Assembly (NCBI GenBank): GCA_963816145.1
Contig: CAWFJP010000030.1
Location: 160,001-224,000 of the forward strand
DNA length: 64,000 bases
DNA from: an uncultured delta proteobacterium
Lineage (GTDB): Bacteria > Desulfobacterota > Binatia > UBA9968
Direction: 5' to 3'
Made by a program: the position numbers and the translations under genes. The notes below the pieces were generated by a model. The model was not told the DNA's origin, did not search any database, and worked only from the letters and a program-made list of their open reading frames with translations. Below are positions 55,825 through 64,000 of this stretch, one piece after another; position 1 is the first letter of the stretch, and the number at the start of each line of letters is the position of its first letter.

Positions 55825-57066
55825 GTGGCCGAATCCAAGTGGTATCAAGAACTCACGACCTACCAGTGGCGCGTGCTGCTGTGCGCTTGCCTGGGTTGGG
55901 CGCTCGACATCATGGACGGCTACCTATACGCCATCATCCTGTTCCCCGCCATGAGCGACTTACTCGGCACCGCCGAGAGTGCCGTTATCGGCTGGTACGG
56001 CGGCATTGTCCTGAGCATCTTTATGATCGGCTGGGCCCTGGGCGGGCTGATCTTCGGTCCCATCGCCGACCGCTACGGTCGCGCCAAAACCATGGCGATT
56101 ACGATCCTGATCTACGCCACTTTCACCGGCCTCTGCGGTATCGCCAGTGGCTGGTGGGAGTTGGCGATCTTCCGGTTCCTCACCGGCTTGGGCATCGGCG
56201 GCGAGTGGGCCGCCGGCGCAGCGCTCATCGCCGAGAGTTTTCCGGAAAAATCGCGCGCCAAGGCCGCGGGCATTATGCAAGCCTCGGGCGGCCTCGGCTT
56301 TTTTCTCGCCACGGCGCTTTATTTGATCATCGGACCCTACGGCTGGCGCTGGGTCTTTGCCCTCGGCGTCTTGCCCGCCATCGTGGCCTTCTACGTGCGT
56401 CACTCGTTGGAAGAGCCGGCGCGCTGGACCCAATCCAAACAGACCGGCAACCCCTATCCCGCCCTATTTGCACGCGGGGTACGCCGCGATGTGCTGGTCG
56501 GCACCGGCCTCGCCGTGGTCGCGACCTTCGGCTATCAAGGTGCGGTGCAATGGGTCCCCAGCTGGATCGCCGCCATGCTCCACGCCCAGGGCGCCCGCGC
56601 GGTGATCCCCCAGGTAAGTTTGATCACGACGACTCTAACCACCGGCGGCATCATCGGCTGCCTGTGCATGCCGTTCATCGCCGAGCGCTGGGGGAGAAAG
56701 GGCGCGTTGTTTATTTATTTCCTCGGCGCGTTGCTCACTGTGCCGACGACCTTTTTGTTCGCCAAGGAGTTCAACCACGCCGTCTTCGCTTCGCCGGTGA
56801 TGGGCTTTTTCGCCGCCGGCGTGACCACCGCCTTCGCGATCTATTTGCCGGAACTTTTCCCGACCAAAATTCGCGCCACGGCACAAGGCTTTTGCTTCAA
56901 CTTCGCCCGCTTCTTTTCCGCCGCAGGCCCGCTGCTCGCCGGAGTGCTCACCTCCGCCCACGGCTCCTTCGCCCCCGCGATCGCCATTGTCGGTATGGTT
57001 TACTTGCTGGGTTTGATAGTTTTGATTTTCGCGCGGGAAACTCGCGGACAGCCATTGCCTGAATAA
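55825..57066 (+). CDS. MFS transporter (aromatic acid/sialate-like)
   Basis: GWALDIMD, GPIADRYGR, GLGIGGEW, PELFPTKIRA, ETRGQPL; GTG start assumed. Confidence 0.9.
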   Translation: MAESKWYQELTTYQWRVLLCACLGWALDIMDGYLYAIILFPAMSDLLGTAESAVIGWYGGIVLSIFMIGWALGGLIFGPIADRYGRAKTMAITILIYATFTGLCGIASGWWELAIFRFLTGLGIGGEWAAGAALIAESFPEKSRAKAAGIMQASGGLGFFLATALYLIIGPYGWRWVFALGVLPAIVAFYVRHSLEEPARWTQSKQTGNPYPALFARGVRRDVLVGTGLAVVATFGYQGAVQWVPSWIAAMLHAQGARAVIPQVSLITTTLTTGGIIGCLCMPFIAERWGRKGALFIYFLGALLTVPTTFLFAKEFNHAVFASPVMGFFAAGVTTAFAIYLPELFPTKIRATAQGFCFNFARFFSAAGPLLAGVLTSAHGSFAPAIAIVGMVYLLGLIVLIFARETRGQPLPE

Positions 57067-57128
57067 TTCGTCAACGTGCAGTTAGCGAACCAACCCTGCA
57101 ACGGCCGGGAAGTCGAGCGCGAGTGTTT

Positions 57129-58406
57129 TTATTCGGCAGACTTCGGCTCCAGGGCGCGCGCGGCTTCATGCTGCATCGCTTCGGCGCGTTGCCGGCGGCT
57201 GACGATCAACAAAGCGGCCGCGGCGGTGGTGCAAACGACACCGCAGACCGCGAAGGTCCAGTCGATGCCGATGGCGGAAGCCGAGGTGCCAATGATCAAA
57301 CCGCCGAGGGACCACAACCCGCGGTCCATGAAGAACAAGCTCAAGACTCGCCCGAGTAATTCCTGCGGCGTTGCGGTTTGAATCACCGTATTGGTCAACG
57401 CCCGCTCGCCCACCTGGCAAAAACCCACCATGGCCAAAAACAAAATCGACAAAATAAACGAATGAGAAAAGGCGAACAGGGTCAAAGACAGCGCGAATCC
57501 GAGCACGCAAAAACAGATCGAGCGGGTGCCGACGCGTAGTTTATTCACCGTGGCGAGCGACAAGGATGCCACCGTGGCGCCGATTCCTGGCGCGGACATG
57601 AGTATGCCGAATCCCGACGCGCCGACATGCAGCACATTGGTCGCGAACATCGGCAAAAACCGGTTATAGGGCGCGCCGAACAGCGCCATGACGTAGGAAA
57701 TCCCGACAATATAGAGCATGCGGCGGTTGCCGCGGAGATAGACAAATCCCTCCTTGATGTCGGCCAACAAGCCTTGCTTGTGGTGGCGACCTTCCCAGGG
57801 CGGCAGTTCCATCTGATAGAGATTGAAAATCAGATAAACAAAACTGAGCGCGTTGATCAGAAAACAGCCGGCGATGCCGATGTAGGCAATAATCAAACCA
57901 CCCGCCGACGGCCCCATGATTTTCGAGAAATTGAAGACCGAGGACTGCAAGCCGATGGCGTTGAGCAGCTCATCCTTCGGTACCAAACTGTTGACCAGCG
58001 ATTGCCGCGCCGTCTGGTTGATCGTGTTGACGACACCGAGAAAGAAGGCCAGAAGAGCGATATGCCAGAGTTCGATTCCTTCAAACTTCACCAGCAGCCA
58101 ATAGGTGAATGCTTGCAACATTGCCAAGCTTTGCGTGATCATCAAGACGCGCCGACGGTCGAACCGATCGGCGATGGCGCCGCCCACGGCGCCGATCAGA
58201 AGCCGTGGCACGGTGTCGAATACCGCGATCACACCGATGGCGACCGGCGATTGCGACAGATGCCACACCAACCAGCTCTGCGCGACGTTCTGCATGAAAT
58301 CGCCGGAGCTGGAAACCAAAGCCCCTTCCATCAATAGACGGAAGTTCCGATGGCGCAGGGAACGGAGAGTTCTCAATGATGACAGCGACAGCATGATGTT
58401 CGACAA
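57129..58406 (-). CDS. MFS transporter (MFS_3-like)
   Basis: LRHRNFRLL, GGAIADRFDRR, TARQSL, LLGRVLS. Confidence 0.9.
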   Translation of the reverse strand: MSNIMLSLSSLRTLRSLRHRNFRLLMEGALVSSSGDFMQNVAQSWLVWHLSQSPVAIGVIAVFDTVPRLLIGAVGGAIADRFDRRRVLMITQSLAMLQAFTYWLLVKFEGIELWHIALLAFFLGVVNTINQTARQSLVNSLVPKDELLNAIGLQSSVFNFSKIMGPSAGGLIIAYIGIAGCFLINALSFVYLIFNLYQMELPPWEGRHHKQGLLADIKEGFVYLRGNRRMLYIVGISYVMALFGAPYNRFLPMFATNVLHVGASGFGILMSAPGIGATVASLSLATVNKLRVGTRSICFCVLGFALSLTLFAFSHSFILSILFLAMVGFCQVGERALTNTVIQTATPQELLGRVLSLFFMDRGLWSLGGLIIGTSASAIGIDWTFAVCGVVCTTAAAALLIVSRRQRAEAMQHEAARALEPKSAE

Positions 58407-58590
58407 ATCTCAGCGGTGACAACCCTATTGTTATTCCAAATGCGCCGACAACGCAAAACGTCTTGCGAATCGCTGGTGAATCGGTTGATTCATCCGGCCG
58501 CCGGTCATAGAGTTTAATGCGAATAGATTACTCTAAGGGGACAACGCGGATGTCCTTCGTATCTGGCCTTCCTACGAGATTTCCGAATCC

Positions 58591-58623
58591 GAACCTTGAA
58601 CCTTGAATTTTGAACTCTTGAAC
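58591..58623 (+). repeat. 7-9 bp TTGAAC tandem repeats
   Basis: gaaccttgaaccttgaattttgaactcttgaac directly before the AAGGAG RBS of CDS 58640. Confidence 0.65.
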
Positions 58624-58639
58624 AAAGGAGACAAAGCCG

Positions 58640-59158
58640 ATGTTTTCCATGCCCATCGTCAACTTACTGGCTGAAGGCAGCAAACTTGCCGCAACGGGCA
58701 AACGCGTCAACGTCCTGTGGCAGCACGACGACTGTCTCGCCTTCGTCGCGCGCGGGCGAGAATACCGCAGCGAGTTCCATATCAATCCGAGCGACGAAAC
58801 CATGTACATGATCAAAGGCGAAATGCGCCTCCACTACCGCACGCCGGAAGGCAAAGAAGCTGTCGCGGTAATCGCCGAAGGCGCGATGATCTACACCCCC
58901 GCCGGCACACCGCACTCGCCGCGCTTCCCGCCCGACGCCTTCGCGCTTATTTCGGAACGAAAACGCCGCCCCGGCGAGATCGACAAGTTTCACTGGTATT
59001 GCCCGAAGTGCGACACGCTGCTGCACGAACAACAGTTCATCGTCGACGACTACGCCAAAGACCCGGTGTCGAAAGCCTATCGGCAATTTTTTGAAAGTTT
59101 GGAATTCAGAACCTGCAAACAATGCGGCGAAGTCATGCCGGCGCCACAAGCGCTATGA
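58640..59158 (+). CDS. 3-hydroxyanthranilate 3,4-dioxygenase (NbaC/HAO)-like
   Basis: Cupin metal ligands FHINPSDE..PHSP, ERKR, and rubredoxin-like WYCPKC...RTCKQCG. Confidence 0.88.
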   Translation: MFSMPIVNLLAEGSKLAATGKRVNVLWQHDDCLAFVARGREYRSEFHINPSDETMYMIKGEMRLHYRTPEGKEAVAVIAEGAMIYTPAGTPHSPRFPPDAFALISERKRRPGEIDKFHWYCPKCDTLLHEQQFIVDDYAKDPVSKAYRQFFESLEFRTCKQCGEVMPAPQAL

Positions 59159-59218
59159 CTTCACATCTGGAGCATTGGGAACCAAACAAACAGACTCGAC
59201 GCATTTGTCCACATTGCG

Positions 59219-60226
59219 TTATTTCAATGTACGGGCGAGCTTTTGTGCGATGCTAAAATCAAACACTTGGTCGGGCAGCACCGGCTGTTTCGGCTTCACC
59301 CGCTCGGAAGCGTCCGCGATCATTTGGCGCTGAATATCTTCACTCACCGTGCCGTCGTCCAATAGCGCTGGGCCGGCAATATCATAGACGCGACTAGCGA
59401 TTTTGTCCGGGTCTTTCCCGATGTCCACCCACGGCCCCTTGAGAAACTCAATGGCGTACTTGCGATCGGTTTTGATCAGCCGCATCGCCTTCAACATCGC
59501 GCGCACCACCTTGGTCACCAGCTCGGGCTGCTCGGTCAACATCGCCTTGGTCGTTGCAAGTCCCCCCTGCACCGATCGATACACGTCAGCCGCAGAAACG
59601 AGCTTGCGAAACCCTTCGTCTTGCGCGGTAAACGTCAAGGGCATTTGCAGCGGCGCGGCATCGATCACTTTAGCCTTCAACGCGGTATAGGTAACGTGGC
59701 TGGGGCCAGTTGCAAGAATAGCGACGTCTTCAAGGCGTACGTTATGCGCAATAAGAATTCGGCGCGCGAGTATTTCCGCTAAGGATCCGACTCCGCCGGT
59801 GCCGATTTTCTTGCCTTTCAATTGCTGGACACTGGTAATGTTGGGCTGGACGATGAGGTCGAAAGACGGTTGGTCCGTGACTGCCAATATCACCCTGATG
59901 TCAGCGCCCCTGACAGCGGCGGCGACGGCCGATCCAGTTGCCGAAGCGAACTGCGTGCTGTTTCCCAGAGTGGCCTGTATGGTTTGGATCGCTTGCATCA
60001 CAATCAACTCTACATCGAGACCTTCCTCACGGAAAAAACCGCGCTCCTTGGCGACGAAATAGGGCATCGAAGTCGTGCTTCTCGCCGCCAAGCCCATGCG
60101 CATAGGGATTAGCTTGTCAGCACTCTCAGCCACACCGAGATTCTTAAGAAGGCATGACACGACGATGAAAGCGCCCACTAAGATTGGTCTTAGACTCATC
60201 ATTGGATCCTCCGAAACTCTGTGCAT
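59219..60226 (-). CDS. ABC-type substrate-binding protein (NMT1/SsuA-like)
   Basis: VAKERGFFREEGLDVELI, QLKGKKIG, VFDFSI; start uncertain. Confidence 0.85.
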   Translation of the reverse strand: MHRVSEDPMMSLRPILVGAFIVVSCLLKNLGVAESADKLIPMRMGLAARSTTSMPYFVAKERGFFREEGLDVELIVMQAIQTIQATLGNSTQFASATGSAVAAAVRGADIRVILAVTDQPSFDLIVQPNITSVQQLKGKKIGTGGVGSLAEILARRILIAHNVRLEDVAILATGPSHVTYTALKAKVIDAAPLQMPLTFTAQDEGFRKLVSAADVYRSVQGGLATTKAMLTEQPELVTKVVRAMLKAMRLIKTDRKYAIEFLKGPWVDIGKDPDKIASRVYDIAGPALLDDGTVSEDIQRQMIADASERVKPKQPVLPDQVFDFSIAQKLARTLK

Positions 60227-60337
60227 CACCAAGCGACTTGCGGCCGAATCATGATGATTAGCCAACTTTTGCAAGTTTGAGTCAATGGGCTTTTAAAATC
60301 GGCGCTGCGAAATCATCCCTCGACAATGAGAATTTAG

Positions 60338-60583
60338 CCGCTCCTACGCTTCCAGCCCAATGCCTTCGCCTTGATCTCAGAAAGAAAACGCCGCCCCGGC
60401 GAGGTCGACAAATTCCATTGGTACTGCCCGAACTGCGACACGCTCCTGCACGAAGAACAGTTCGTCGTCGACGACTACGCCACAGACCCGGTGTCAAAGG
60501 CGTACCAGCGATTCTTTGAGAGTTTAGAATTCAGAACCTGCAAGCAATGCGGCGAAATCATGCCGGCGCCGGATGCGCTTTGA
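60338..60583 (+). pseudogene. Second copy of the dioxygenase 3' end (82 codons)
   Basis: RFQPNAFALISERKRRPGEVDKFHWYCPNC...RTCKQCGEIMPAPDAL*, colinear with 58913-59158. Confidence 0.9.
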
Positions 60584-60653
60584 ATAGGACCCTAGAGAAG
60601 AATTCGCCGCTAGTCAGGATTAGGTCGATGGAGATATCAATTTAATCCTAGCA

Positions 60654-60743
60654 TCAACGAATCACCCGATCCGCTCGCACAAGCACGTTCGGCGGAATCG
60701 TCACACTGATCTGCTTGGCGGCCTTCAGATTGACCACGAGCTC
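60654..60743 (-). pseudogene. 3'-terminal fragment of an ABC_sub_bind-type substrate-binding protein
   Basis: Manual translation ELVVNLKAAKQISVTIPPNVLVRADRVIR*, the typical C-terminus of this family; nothing recognisable upstream. Confidence 0.8.
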
Positions 60744-60949
60744 ACCTGCGACTGCCCGCTAACGGGCAGCGCAACGTCAAACATGGTGTCTACGACAACT
60801 GCGGCACGCCACCGCAGCTTGGGCAATGCTCCGAGTCAATATCGAACAACACGATTCCGACTTTGAGCCTTCGTCGAAAGGTATAGAGTGACAAAGATCG
60901 AGGTGCTAACGTGACGCCAGCACAAGTCTAGAAACCCACGGAGGCGCAC

Positions 60950-61468
60950 ATGTCCTTCCTTACTGACGAACAGAAAGACCTTGCGAACGAGATCGCCGCC
61001 CTACTGACCGAGCGAGGCGAGACGGTCTGTGTGGCGGAGTCCACCACTGGAGGCCTCGTGTCCGCGGCACTACTGTGGGTGGCCGGAGCGTCCAAGTACT
61101 ACGCCGGTGGCAGCGTGCTCTACACGCTTGTCTCGCGCACGGCGCTGGCGGGTGTGCCGGCATCAATGTTTGAGAACTACCGCGGCACCACGCCGGAGAT
61201 GATCACCGCTATCGCCGACGCCATGCGCCAGCGACTGGGCACCACCTGGTGCATCGCCGAATCCGGCCTCGCCGGCCCCACCCGCGGCCGATCCGGCCTG
61301 CCGCCCGGCCGCACGACGATCTGCGTCTCCGGCCCTGTAACGCGTGTCAACGTGCAGCAGACCGGCCTGCCGGACCGAGAGCCCAACATGATCGCCTTCA
61401 CGACTCTGACGCTACGCTATCTGCGGGACGCGATTAAAGAGGGAGCACTAGTGTCGAGAAATATGTGA
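60950..61468 (+). CDS. CinA C-terminal domain protein (PncC-like)
   Basis: VAESTTGGLVSA, GASKYY, AESGLAGP; GGAGG RBS. Confidence 0.9.
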   Translation: MSFLTDEQKDLANEIAALLTERGETVCVAESTTGGLVSAALLWVAGASKYYAGGSVLYTLVSRTALAGVPASMFENYRGTTPEMITAIADAMRQRLGTTWCIAESGLAGPTRGRSGLPPGRTTICVSGPVTRVNVQQTGLPDREPNMIAFTTLTLRYLRDAIKEGALVSRNM

Positions 61469-61583
61469 TAGCGAGGGCCTTCTGCCATCGCTTCGAGTTC
61501 CCTCTCATGGATGCCCAACGACTCAACGCTCAGCCGCGAGCGGTGCGGGAGTTGACGAACGTAAAGCCGCAACTGTCACGCGC

Positions 61584-61829
61584 CACTCGCCGCGCTTCCC
61601 CCCCGACGCCTTCGCGTTAATTTCCGATCGCAAACGCCGCCCCGGCGAGATCGACAAGTTTCACTGGTATTGCCCGAAGTGCGACACGCTGCTGCACGAA
61701 CAACAGTTCATCGTCGACGACTACGCCAAAGACCCGGTGTCGAAGGCGTATCAGCGTTTCTTTGAGAGTTTAGATTTCAGAACCTGCAAACAGTGCGGCG
61801 AAGTCATGCCGGCGCCGGACGCGCTCTGA
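61584..61829 (+). pseudogene. Third copy of the dioxygenase 3' end (82 codons, no start codon)
   Basis: HSPRFPPDAFALISDRKRRPGEIDKFHWYCPKC...RTCKQCGEVMPAPDAL*; about 113 nt identical to 58961-59073. Confidence 0.92.
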
Positions 61830-62138
61830 TTGCGTACGGGTGTTCGTTCTAGCTTGAAGGTTTGAGATTTGACACGTGAAGGTTCCAATCAATGGAAATT
61901 TTTGAGCAACTGAAACTGTTGGCACTACTCATTGCCGCATTTCCTAATCCTCCCGGGCAATGAATTGAAGTCTATTCCAGAATAGCCTCGACTCGATCCC
62001 AGCGCGACGACAATGACAGACATGTCGACGTGAACGATGACAATGTCACAATCATGCTCGAGAACAATCGCACCGCAATCTATCATAGAAGATCCGTCGC
62101 GGACAAATTTTACCGAAAATTCCGGCGGTGCCATGGAC

Positions 62139-62154
62139 TGGCATTCCTTGTGCA
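62139..62154 (+). promoter_or_regulatory. sigma54 (-24/-12) promoter
   Basis: TGGCATTCCTTGTGCA = GG-N10-GC just upstream of the response regulator. Confidence 0.55.
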
Positions 62155-62176
62155 GTTCCTTTCTCTCATGAGAAAC

Positions 62177-62560
62177 ATGGTTAACAAAGTATTGATCGTA
62201 GATAGTAACGATACCTTTCGGGGAACGCTCATGACCTTTATCGAGGGTTTGGGCCACCAAGTCTTCGAAGCCACTACAGGGCCAGAGGCGCTCGAAAAAG
62301 CCTCAAGCATTCATCCCAACTTGATCATGATGGACGTTCGCTTGCCGGGAATGAACGGCGATGAGGTCACCGCAAAATTGAAGTCGAATTCCGCCACACG
62401 AAACATACCAGTGGTGATAAACACCGGCTGGACCACGTCCTGTAACGTTGAAGACCGCATCCACCGCGCCCTCAATGCCGGGGCGGCGGAAATTATGTAC
62501 AAGCCAATCCAGATGCCGGAGCTTCGCGGCGTCCTGCGCAACTATTTATTAGCCTGCTAG
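62177..62560 (+). CDS. Single-domain response regulator (DivK-like)
   Basis: KVLIVDSND..IMMDVRLPGMNG..TRNIPVV..YKP. Confidence 0.85.
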   Translation: MVNKVLIVDSNDTFRGTLMTFIEGLGHQVFEATTGPEALEKASSIHPNLIMMDVRLPGMNGDEVTAKLKSNSATRNIPVVINTGWTTSCNVEDRIHRALNAGAAEIMYKPIQMPELRGVLRNYLLAC

Positions 62561-62655
62561 ACCGCCAGATGGGTGAGCGCACCCGGCTGACAGATTATCG
62601 GTCCCAAGTCCTGCGCATTTACATCCGACCTTGAAACTGGTGAAACTTGAACGTA

Positions 62656-63567
62656 TTACCTCTGCATCTCCATAATGAAATCTCTGAGTCCCGCTTCCAC
62701 ATCAAACTTCGACACGTAGCCCAATTCACTCCGCGCCCTGGTAATGTCCAGAGCTGGCCGCGGGCGTGACGATACTTCGCGCGTGAAGCGCACAGCGCCG
62801 AGAACTTTCTTCAACCCCAGCTGAATGTCGGCGATCGTCGCCGCTACGCCGGTGCCGAGATTGTAGGCTTGGTGCGGCAGATTCGCGGCATGCGTCATTA
62901 AGTTTAGTCCTTGGGCGATATCTTTAACGTAAACGAAGTCGTTGGCGTCGGCGATGCCCGGCCCCATGGGCGCCGGTTTGCCGGCGAGCGCGGCTTGCAG
63001 CATCGCGTACATGTCCATGCCGACGTTGCCGCCACCGGTGTAGGGGCCGTAGCCGTAGACCGACGCGAAGCGCGGCAGGGCGAGTTCGAACTTGTACGTC
63101 GCCGCGTAAGCGGTCAGCACTTCCTCGCACGCCGCCTTTCCTGCTTGATAGACCCGCGCGCCGCCGTCGCGCCACGCCTCTTCGTGAATCGGCACCGGCG
63201 GATTGCGCAGATCGTAAACGCCTTGACTGCTGGCATGGATCAATCGGCGCACTCCGGTGAGCCGCACCGCCTCGGCAACGTTCAATGTCCCAATCAAGTT
63301 CACCTGAAAGCCGAAGTACGGCGTCCGATTGCCTTGCAGCCCGGCGGTGTGAATCACCACCTCGGCGCGCGTGCGCTGCATCGCCTCGATCAACGCCGGC
63401 AGCTCCCGAATATCGCCGCGAATCATCGGCAACTCTCGTCCAAGAACTTTGCGCAAATAATCCAAGTTGGGCTGCAAGTCGAAAAACGTCACCTCATCAC
63501 CGCGCTCCGTCAACTCCTTGGCCGTGTAGCAGCCGATCAAACCACATCCGGTAATCAAGACTCGCAT
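62656..63567 (-). CDS. NAD-dependent epimerase/dehydratase (extended SDR)
   Basis: MRVLITGCGLIG, NLIGTLNV, ASSQGVY, YQAGK, RFASVYG; GAGGGG RBS. Confidence 0.92.
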   Translation of the reverse strand: MRVLITGCGLIGCYTAKELTERGDEVTFFDLQPNLDYLRKVLGRELPMIRGDIRELPALIEAMQRTRAEVVIHTAGLQGNRTPYFGFQVNLIGTLNVAEAVRLTGVRRLIHASSQGVYDLRNPPVPIHEEAWRDGGARVYQAGKAACEEVLTAYAATYKFELALPRFASVYGYGPYTGGGNVGMDMYAMLQAALAGKPAPMGPGIADANDFVYVKDIAQGLNLMTHAANLPHQAYNLGTGVAATIADIQLGLKKVLGAVRFTREVSSRPRPALDITRARSELGYVSKFDVEAGLRDFIMEMQR

Positions 63568-63592
63568 GACAGTCCCCTCATCAAAATCCCGG

Positions 63593-63724
63593 AAGGGCGA
63601 CCGCCGGTCGCCCCTACGCTCCTTGAGAACCCCCACCTCTCTCCTCCCCCGCGTCGCGGGGGAGGAGAGAGGTGGGGGATTGAACGATTTGGAACATCTG
63701 GAACCTCTGGAACAACTGGAACGA
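63593..63724. repeat. Composite intergenic repeat: GTAG-REP, long hairpin and TGGAAC 9-mers
   Basis: Minus GTAGGGGCGACCGGCGGTCGCCC (to 63617); ccccacctctctcctcccccgcg/cgcgggggaggagagaggtgggg hairpin; five ttgaac/tggaac units. Confidence 0.75.
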
Positions 63725-63727
63725 GCT

Positions 63728-64000
63728 TTAGATATTGAGTTCTTTCGACCGATCATAATCATGCCGCCCACCCGCCGCCGCACCGAGCGGGAAGATCCGG
63801 TCGATCGCCGCCAGATCGTCTGGCGTTAACGAAACATCCGCCGCCGCGGCGTTGGCTTCGAGATTGGCGATCTTGTACGTGCCGGGGATCGGCACGAAGA
63901 AGTCGCCTTGATGGAGAATCCACGCCAGCGCCAATTGCGCCACCGTGCATTTCTTAGCTCTGGCAATCCCTTCCAATTGCTTGAGCAAGCCTACGTTATG
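63728..64000 (-). CDS. Aldo/keto reductase, 3' part (starts beyond window)
   Basis: AQLALAWILHQG..PIPGT..LEANAAA. Confidence 0.9.
   Translation of the reverse strand, partial: HNVGLLKQLEGIARAKKCTVAQLALAWILHQGDFFVPIPGTYKIANLEANAAAADVSLTPDDLAAIDRIFPLGAAAGGRHDYDRSKELNI

Follow-up and report, generated by a model that had tools for sequence, protein, structure and literature searches.

Stacked 3' ends of a 3-hydroxyanthranilate dioxygenase gene in an uncultured Binatia bacterium suggest successive 3'-end displacement at an ordinary metabolic gene

How does the 3' end of a metabolic gene come to lie three times in a row, each time in frame, with unrelated genes between the copies and no integrase nearby? 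This question is raised by a 64,000-nucleotide stretch of DNA (the window; positions 160001-224000 of contig C30) from the 7.82-Mb, 31-contig genome of an uncultured soil bacterium of the Binatia (G000), in which the end of a gene for 3-hydroxyanthranilate 3,4-dioxygenase (HAAO) occurs as copies A, B and C, separated by cargo 1 (between A and B) and cargo 2 (between B and C). An earlier note on this DNA had proposed repeated insertion of mini-cassettes, mobilised in trans, at one att site, giving an integron-like array. Here, sequence comparison with relatives led us to favour, with a probability of roughly 55%, an insertion anchored by homology on one side and closed by an illegitimate joint within the resident gene on the other ("3'-end displacement"); the array would then be what two such displacements, one after the other, left fixed at a hot spot of recombination. 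Related genomes are labelled G0xx, their loci L0xx, L1xx or L2xx and public sequencing runs X1-X4. The array consists of the following features:

58640 to 59158, plus strand: intact HAAO gene of 172 amino acids (aa) (PF06052 3-HAO, E 1.2e-20), with syntenic orthologs in 16 loci of relatives
58913 to 59158, plus strand: copy A, the 3' end now joined to the full gene (repeat search, alignment, blastn)
59219 to 60274, minus strand: cargo 1, a gene for an NMT1-like substrate-binding protein, convergent with HAAO (PF09084, E 1.1e-26)
60338 to 60583, plus strand: copy B, an in-frame orphan 3' end with an in-frame stop codon just upstream
about 60651 to 60743, minus strand: stub, the final 30 codons and stop of an ABC-type binding-protein gene (tblastx)
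60812 to 61519, plus strand: CinA unit with an open reading frame (ORF) at 60950-61468 (PF02464, E 3.7e-34)
61584 to 61829, plus strand: copy C, an in-frame orphan 3' end without a start codon, whose 3'-most part and downstream flank are native

A repeat search recovered a single family of three direct copies at 58906-59158, 60331-60583 (82%) and 61577-61829 (91%), spaced by 1425 and 1246 nucleotides (nt). Over 246 nt without gaps (58913-59158, 60338-60583, 61584-61829), identity was 205/246 for A/B, 226/246 for A/C and 209/246 for B/C. Firm similarity of B begins at ~60347 and C can be traced back to ~61577, which slightly corrects earlier start coordinates. The 60 nt upstream of the copies, compared in register, matched at 15-24/60 and the 60 nt past the stop codon at 14-16/60; because this is the random level, similarity among the copies starts within ~20 nt of the HSPRF codons and ends at the TGA. 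By blastn, A, B and C are the sole copies in the genome, and four paralogous HAAO genes of ~40% identity lie on other contigs. The cargo measures 1179 and 1000 nt. The 30 residues of the stub are 77-90% identical to the C-termini of many paralogs in G000 (tblastx). NMT1-like binding-protein genes are very largely expanded in this genome, with several hundred tblastn matches to the cargo 1 protein (E <= 1e-5) spread over nearly all contigs, often as tandem arrays.

Both orphans, B and C, retain the reading frame and all four Cys. The ratio of nonsynonymous to synonymous divergence (dN/dS) was 0.14 for A/C and 0.10 for both A/B and B/C, with synonymous divergence (dS) of 0.30-0.69; orthologous full HAAO genes gave the same level (0.05-0.24), and the C-termini of the copies were 86-94% identical in aa. 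Since low dN/dS holds even for the orphan pair B/C, most copy differences appear to have arisen inside working genes, indicating that the copies diverged under purifying selection as parts of such genes. The earlier note's description of the structure therefore stood up well: repeat search and alignment agree with a gene 3' end of 246 nt triplicated in frame at periods of 1425 and 1246 nt, dN/dS of 0.10-0.14 agrees with mainly synonymous differences between intact orphans, and Pfam and tblastx agree with different cargo between the copies (an NMT1-like gene; CinA plus a binding-protein stub). The differences between A and C are unevenly spread, leaving one long identical tract:

58961 to 59073, plus strand: 113-nt tract identical in A and C (partner 61632-61744), the longest identical run, with 20 differences in 246 nt

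A run of this length has P = 2e-5 under uniform placement and 4e-4 on third codon positions, and is best read as a patch of gene conversion or recombination.

The array is also present in short-read data of other studies. Twenty public runs from 18 studies contain at least 55% of the sampled words of 58300-62400, and the contigs of four runs (X1-X4, four studies) were compared with the window. An X1 contig spanning 59044-60840 (2 differences), X2 contigs spanning 59156-60723 and 60741-61658 and an X4 contig spanning 59044-60718 together bridge copy A, cargo 1, copy B and cargo 2 with 0-10 differences, and the junction between cargo 2 and C is bridged by an X2 contig and by an X3 contig (61490-61661). 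All three runs with coverage show the same array. Breaks between contigs are confined to 58929-59044 and 61613-61715, the region of the 113 nt identical in A and C; a 113-nt contig at this place has ~2x depth. One run is possibly the source sample, so that independent support comes from at least two studies. In X3 there was no depth over 59259-60628 and 60903-61450, uncovered stretches that prove nothing about cargo-less variants, and an X1 contig of depth 2.5, with 37 nt on the shorter arm, connects 58934 with 60360, running from HAAO straight into B, which is weak evidence for a form without unit 1.

Comparison with the genus placed the array at a site with one constant and one variable side. 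On the left, cupin, Tim44-like, MFS, MFS_3 and HAAO genes are syntenic in 16 loci from 15 genomes, and the right side of HAAO varies among the same loci. The corresponding features in the window are:

57129 to 58406, minus strand: MFS_3 transporter gene (PF05977, E 1.6e-58), conserved left backbone
about 58380 to 58440: left recombination breakpoint, in the 5' end of the MFS_3 gene or the intergenic region (identity drop against L037)
62030 to 62560, plus strand: response-regulator gene (PF00072, E 2.4e-19), native right flank of the empty site
62656 to 63783, minus strand: NAD-dependent epimerase gene (PF01370, E 1.9e-32), conserved right backbone by synteny

Empty sites, at which HAAO is directly followed by the response regulator and epimerase, were found in G002 (L036; HAAO, ~175 nt, response regulator, epimerase), L041, L037, L040, L051, L047 and L061. 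In G008 the epimerase lies 87 nt past HAAO, in eight loci HAAO is followed by the gene that normally comes after the epimerase, and other downstream genes include a di-haem oxidoreductase (G007), an antitoxin-family ORF (G003) and further others. The HAAO 3' end is carried by 25/31 genomes of the genus, with extra copies beside the gene only in G000 (three copies) and G019 (two copies). The G019 locus reads HAAO, an opposite-strand AAA_14/DUF4143 gene, orphan and epimerase, with ~1450 nt of cargo and an orphan covering gene nt ~259-503 that contains an in-frame stop (dN/dS 0.25-0.35).

When HAAO was compared with its own downstream region in 161 loci with at least 150 nt downstream (duplicates included), three gave credible orphan remnants: G019, L065 (frameshifted, covering gene nt 406-506 and lying behind ~1490 nt of cargo with a di-haem oxidoreductase-type ORF) and L045 (48 nt, gene nt 235-282). 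Two more downstream matches, of 25 and 45 nt to the 5' region of the gene, look like chance. Most lineages carry variable cargo after HAAO with no orphan, as expected if an illegitimate joint usually falls downstream of the gene. A class-wide search of 401 genomes (95 with a match; G019 not in the draw) gave no further clear array besides that of G000. As a side observation, the full HAAO of G019 (L021 8479-8994) is out of frame between codons ~70 and ~135 and that of G018 (L025 8305-8821) shifts frame at codon 96, either through long-read indel errors or as real pseudogenes.

Each of the three ends, together with what follows it, has a counterpart on full genes elsewhere. Copy C and its native flank are contiguous in L041 (93.1% over 736 nt downstream) and also in L037, G002, L040, L051, L047 and L061. 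In L039 a full HAAO carries the B-type end, with the stub region behind it (94.2% over 312 nt, ungapped, as far as the contig reaches). The A-type end is carried by a full HAAO in L043, with the end of the NMT1 gene behind it (91.2% over 318 nt), and in L049, with the NMT1 gene behind it (81% over 1580 nt) and no orphan found within 4 kb. Sliding identity further revealed switches of ancestry along the locus. Across the MFS_3 gene, the window shares 93-100% identity with its closest backbones, L037 and L038; from ~58400 on, the figure is down to 61-81% between the genes and no higher than 80-92% over the whole of HAAO. For L037 alone, the values are 96-100% up to ~58360 and then 74-81% over 58420-58600. 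Window positions 58447-58567 are 98% identical to L039, whose MFS_3 gene matches at only 68-82%. On the right, identity to L041 is 84% where C begins and rises to 92-97% at its end and beyond, with 22 mismatches between C and L041 in gene nt 272-400 and only 1 in nt 466-519. By these switches, the stretch from ~58400 to near the end of C has another origin than an L037/L041-like ancestor. The left switch of ancestry lies upstream of the entire HAAO gene, and all that survives of the native gene is the tail of C. With HAAO and the intergenic region before it at 61-92%, against 93-100% in the flanking MFS_3 gene, the gene itself is seen to be exchanged between lineages.

Following this reasoning, the two sides of the insertion differ in kind. 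The left switch at ~58400 falls within alignable sequence, marking one homologous junction, and the right joints at 60337/60338 and 61583/61584 are non-homologous, lying between unrelated sequence and the resident gene. Such an ancestry pattern fits homology-facilitated illegitimate recombination, in which one end crosses over in homologous sequence and the other is joined without homology, and an att-type insertion inside the gene is disfavoured because the identity drop lies upstream of the whole of HAAO. From these observations we infer the order of events, the donors and the manner of joining. The ancestor would have carried MFS_3, HAAO, response regulator and epimerase in this order. DNA of a related Binatia, with a complete or 3'-partial HAAO allele and the donor's own downstream neighbour, would have entered by homologous recombination on the left, in the MFS_3/HAAO intergenic region or inside HAAO. 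On the right it would have been closed by a joint inside the resident HAAO, around codons 88-95, presumably illegitimate because the region after HAAO differs between lineages and offers no homology. The incoming allele would keep the enzyme intact and leave the resident 3' end behind as an in-frame orphan. In a first event, a B-type end with the stub and CinA may have arrived, leaving C behind; in a second, an A-type end with the NMT1 gene, leaving B behind; later gene conversion between A and C would have made 113 nt identical. Homology-facilitated illegitimate recombination of this kind would need neither a dedicated att site nor an integrase.

A similar arrangement recurs elsewhere in the genome. 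In a self-comparison of G000 for direct repeats of 90-900 nt, 300-8000 nt apart, with both copies open and ending at the stop codon, 38 pairs were found; 13 consisted of a full gene upstream and an orphan 3' end downstream, one had the opposite order, and the remainder comprised 12 pairs of full genes and 12 of short frames. The 13 pairs are the two HAAO pairs and 11 other loci, at ten of which dN/dS was 0.03-0.48. Their genes encode NMT1-type and other binding proteins, a 455-aa protein of unknown family, a caspase-domain protein, a cyclase and a DUF1329 protein, so that the same topology is probably present at a dozen other ordinary genes of G000. These loci, the first six and the remaining five, and two features of a GST-like gene are:

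Orphan 3'-end loci 1-6: C3:412232/413288, C3:672680/676367, C8:17384/19284, C8:49479/55066, C11:334361/335386, C14:441212/442167
Orphan 3'-end loci 7-11: C14:535738/536584, C14:567750/570788, C17:87278/89922, C29:45846/46872, C31:353180/355117
C11:443709-444425 of G000: GST-like gene (PF14497) of a second triple array, which extends to 447836 (L209 1709-5836)
GST-like 3'-end fragment of ~78 nt: L216 10962-11038, L217 3046-3117, L218 6580-6657 (G000 C18:125580-125657), L221 1801-1873, L224 4891-4926

The GST-like gene on C11 is followed by two in-frame orphan 3' ends (299 nt at 84% and 237 nt at 84%), both reaching the stop position and with left ends ~60 nt apart; Usp and unknown genes lie between the copies. 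The ~78-nt fragment has flanks conserved on both sides in five genomes and lies on another contig than the full gene in G000; it represents either an orphan of long standing or a piece of some conserved element.

The CinA gene of cargo 2 has a history of its own. Its DNA is 89-97% identical to single-copy CinA genes in six relatives, each in different surroundings (L204-L208, L198), and the HAAO genes of these relatives are far more diverged (in G018 and G045, CinA 96% and HAAO 75-79%), which suggests that CinA behaves like a hopping one-gene unit. In G045 and G014, CinA adjoins a homolog of a 232-aa gene of unknown family that lies at C4:576440-579301 in G000 (L203 6440-9215). There, the first ~300 nt of that gene are repeated (99% and 64%) as 5'-end copies forming separate 102-aa ORFs, with unknown ORFs between. 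Two further stretches of G000, C5:154257-158546 and C18:120878-132022, carry repeats of 146-235 nt (88-98% identical) between consecutive genes; the latter is rich in small ORFs, some PIN-type-toxin-like by eye, and no integrase match was found on C18.

Several observations weigh against the two-step displacement outlined above. The left ends of the orphans lie at gene nt ~266 for C, ~283 for B, ~240-259 for G019 and 235 for the L045 fragment: four within 49 nt of the 519-nt gene (P ~0.005); for three within 45 nt, P is ~0.03. A single event may underlie the G019 and L045 ends, whose carriers fall in one subclade. They sit in the most conserved DNA stretch of the HAAO gene, which we take to be cupin motif 2 with its metal-binding His. 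This clustering hints at a preferred site, which plain illegitimate joining does not predict. In addition, the HAAO parts are less donor-like than the cargo (B against L039, 86.5% with cargo at 94.2%; A against L043, 87.3% with cargo at 91.2%), and the first 100 nt of HAAO are only ~83% identical to L039; more exchanges than two steps would therefore be needed, making the gene a patchwork. For unit 1, the left crossover and the right joint both fall near gene nt 260-290, a coincidence more simply accounted for by one crossover with a circle or by a site-specific enzyme. At least six other genomes contain orphans of the GST-like gene, whose left ends recur at nt ~481-493 or ~637-643, and CinA in G021 lies between direct repeats of 69 nt (84%) taken from a GST-like gene's 3' end; both look cassette-like. 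The L039 and L043 contigs end short of the right joints and L049 is too diverged upstream for the right end of cargo 1 to be defined by alignment. Lastly, no Ku (PF02735) was found in G000. The presence of ComEC is uninformative, as it also occurs in 10/14 control genomes.

Machinery for a dedicated mechanism was sought with four Pfam profiles and one custom hidden Markov model (HMM). The PF00589 profile gave 11 matches in G000 and none on C30; resolvase (PF00239) was absent from G000, and rve (PF00665; 2 matches) and DDE_Tnp_1 (PF01609; 16 matches) were likewise absent from C30, so the absence of an integrase nearby, as the earlier note had seen it, extends to the whole contig for these four families. 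An HMM built from the integrases of G000 itself, run against 8079 six-frame ORFs of the window and 176 related loci, gave a single match, none in the window: a 94-aa fragment in L136, upstream of HAAO. No inverted repeat of at least 12 nt within 150 nt was found in 58800-62000 (with a 9-nt exact seed, which a degenerate attC could escape), and none of at least 30 nt in 56000-64000. The sequences just upstream of the three orphans are unlike each other, with no shared cassette-end sequence. There was no tRNA in the window and no Rfam match in the array; sub-threshold Rfam matches on both strands at 63624-63683 (models of hairpin type, scoring 27-37 bits where the cut-offs are 71-95) indicate a palindrome close to where the epimerase ORF has its 5' end. 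Among mobile genomes, the IMG/VR database gave 10 pattern matches for truncated HAAO, none confirmed, phage records gave no HAAO match, and 77 plasmid records held only full-length homologs below 60% identity and no truncated HAAO.

These results divide the mechanism of the earlier note. Repeated insertion at one gene, with the incoming 3' end restoring it and older ends pushed downstream, is retained, and relatives indeed differ in cargo number and content and include empty sites. The single att site is not supported: the left ends, clustered as they are, differ, and identity drops at ~58400, upstream of the whole gene. Mobilisation of mini-cassettes in trans finds no support either, with no recombinase found on the contig or in the 176 loci (apart from the L136 fragment) and an array that is the same in three runs; nor does the integron likeness, with no inverted repeats (a degenerate attC could escape) and no shared cassette ends found.

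A refined form of that proposal is nevertheless the rival that survives best, although we consider it unlikely: units of 1.2-1.4 kb, each bearing a surrogate HAAO 3' end as attP, would have been inserted serially by a recombinase encoded elsewhere, or would be integrase-less remnants or cassettes mobilised in trans, like e14 at icd, tycheposons or arrays of cis-mobilizable and integrative conjugative elements (CIME/ICE). It accounts for partial target-gene copies flanking each unit with the gene restored, for orphan left ends clustered at the conserved cupin motif 2 and for the recurrent left ends of the GST-like orphans. The units are uniformly small with one intact gene each (1179 and 1000 nt in the window, ~1450 nt in G019, ~1490 nt in L065), CinA lies between target-gene repeats at two different genes in two genomes, the 11 PF00589 matches on other contigs provide candidate enzymes, and the low-depth X1 contig joining 58934 to 60360 would represent a form without unit 1. 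However, no recombinase gene or fragment lies in or near the arrays (the single match in 8079 ORFs being the L136 fragment, which precedes HAAO), IMG/VR and phage records yielded no HAAO, no common sequence precedes the three orphans, and their left ends are 16-45 nt apart. Moreover, the resident 5' half and intergenic region are not native, cargo and adjacent 3' end differ in similarity to the same relatives, L049 has HAAO and NMT1 with no orphan within 4 kb, the array is unchanged in the three covering runs, and CinA occurs in seven different contexts and is therefore not inserted site-specifically.

We give distinctly less credence to a Campbell-type event, in which a circle carrying a 5'-truncated 3' part of HAAO plus cargo, popped from a donor array through recombination of the array's repeats, integrates by one homologous crossover in the 3' part of the resident gene. 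Such a circular intermediate has been proposed, in the accessible part of the report, for the C-terminal displacement of rhs genes (Jackson et al. 2009, PMC2935791). Here it would explain the duplication with no integrase, the mosaic copies (C native only at its 3'-most part; 113 nt common to A and C) and the near coincidence of crossover and joint for unit 1. Yet it needs a pre-existing donor array, leaving the first event unexplained, and it predicts a native intergenic region and 5' half, contrary to observation unless a separate allele replacement followed; no circles were seen in the assembled contigs.

In-situ partial duplication of the 3' end, as a tandem or long target duplication, followed by cargo turnover and replacement of the working allele, is very improbable. 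Tandem duplication always puts the orphan 3' end downstream and would also yield the 13:1 asymmetry, and HAAO alleles have clearly been exchanged between lineages. Against it, the period far exceeds the repeat in length, the two units carry unrelated cargo, similarity breaks off precisely at the stop codon, purifying selection is seen in all three pairs including the orphans B and C, and the flanks of B and C are each attached to full genes elsewhere. Still harder to sustain is a role for the orphans like that known from pilE/pilS, as a silent store of sequence from which gene conversion would diversify or repair the working copy: the 113-nt conversion tract, the intact reading frames and the ~78-nt GST-like orphan with conserved flanks across at least five genomes would suit it, but the C-termini are conserved rather than variable, the product is a metabolic enzyme, the orphans of G019 and L065 are decaying (in-frame stop; frameshift), and only 2/31 genomes of the genus have orphans at all. 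A diversity-generating retroelement was also considered and rejected, as the mismatches are not adenine-specific: read by eye from the alignment, only some half of the 20 differences between A and C have an adenine in copy A; no reverse-transcriptase-like ORF was found among the annotated neighbours (Pfam), although no search aimed at reverse transcriptase was made. Finally, an assembly merge of strain variants, which the earlier note had named as an outcome that would undo its proposal, has next to no standing even in a metagenome-type assembly with 6.7% contamination and with several HAAO alleles coexisting in soils, and was rejected because short-read contigs of X1, X2 and X4, from different studies, bridge the junctions and break only in the 113-nt A/C tract.

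Displacement with an illegitimate far joint has its closest precedents in toxin loci. For type VI secretion system (T6SS) effector-immunity arrays, the available text of Kirchberger et al. 2017 (PMC5361080) proposes homology-facilitated illegitimate recombination for sequential displacement. As far as the accessible text of these reports describes them (PMC2935791, PMC5361080), rhs, mafB, cdiA and T6SS arrays likewise consist of a full gene followed by 5'-truncated copies that keep the conserved part, their displaced ends occur on full genes in other strains (here L039, L041/L037/G002 and L043/L049), and they are stable among close relatives with no integrase known. In contrast to the hypervariable toxin tips and cognate immunity genes of those arrays, whose retention is thought in these texts to be selected, the HAAO locus has conserved enzyme ends (86-94% aa identity), unrelated housekeeping-type genes (NMT1, CinA) between the copies and an uncultured Binatia host, and no benefit of keeping the orphans is evident. 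In the parts of the literature on bacterial "C-terminal displacement" that could be consulted, the cases found concern Rhs or T6SS toxins.

Likenesses to mobile elements are more limited. As at icd with e14, the working gene receives an alternative 3' end with mostly synonymous changes and the old fragment (there icdC) persists; but e14, in the text accessible, is a 15-kb prophage with its own integrase and precise excision, whereas the units here measure 1.2-1.4 kb, a recombinase was not found for them, the left breakpoint lies upstream of the whole gene and the joints are non-identical (PMC13626634). Tycheposons at tRNA genes, as outlined in the available preprint text, also push older units inward by serial insertion with partial target copies between, and their arrays include degenerate integrase-less remnants, comparable with the integrase-less units here; unlike in the window, however, integrases or their fragments and att-site repeats are found there (bioRxiv 10.1101/2020.12.28.424599). 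With integron cassette arrays the locus shares small, mostly one-gene units stacked with newer displacing older. It lacks an intI by the array and detectable attC-like inverted repeats (degenerate attC could escape), and in contrast to co-oriented, promoterless cassettes behind Pc, NMT1 and CinA lie on opposite strands (minus and plus, respectively) and the repeats are stretches of the upstream gene's coding region, so by the tested criteria the array is not an integron. CIME/ICE accretion reportedly proceeds by successive insertions at one site, with integrases or their fragments in the arrays.

Overall, displacement arrays have so far been described at polymorphic toxin loci, and here one occurs at an ordinary metabolic gene with a conserved C-terminus. 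Its presence at ordinary genes suggests that displacement is a general by-product of recombination between diverged relatives and nothing peculiar to toxin loci. More speculatively, and in our view doubtfully, Binatia may be able to take up single genes behind resident ones by a general route that needs no integrase, in which incoming DNA anchors on a gene and is closed within it, in-frame orphans accumulate downstream at many loci, and these serve as an archive feeding gene conversion; or else they may have an unrecognised trans-acting recombinase. Pointers to general capture are the HAAO, GST-like, binding-protein, caspase-domain, cyclase and DUF1329 genes with orphan ends and a CinA gene moving between such sites in different genomes, bordered each time by repeats of the gene behind which it has landed. 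A trans-acting recombinase that targets conserved coding motifs near gene 3' ends would, if true, amount to an integron-like system without attC. The orphans can be regarded as dated fossils of earlier alleles that mark the place and order of entry of foreign DNA, in a phylum without a cultured member. Two leftover HAAO 3' ends in a soil bacterium thus seem to record gene capture apparently without a dedicated mobile-element enzyme; should the clustered joints or the hopping CinA reflect an enzyme after all, this would be a new kind of gene-capture system.

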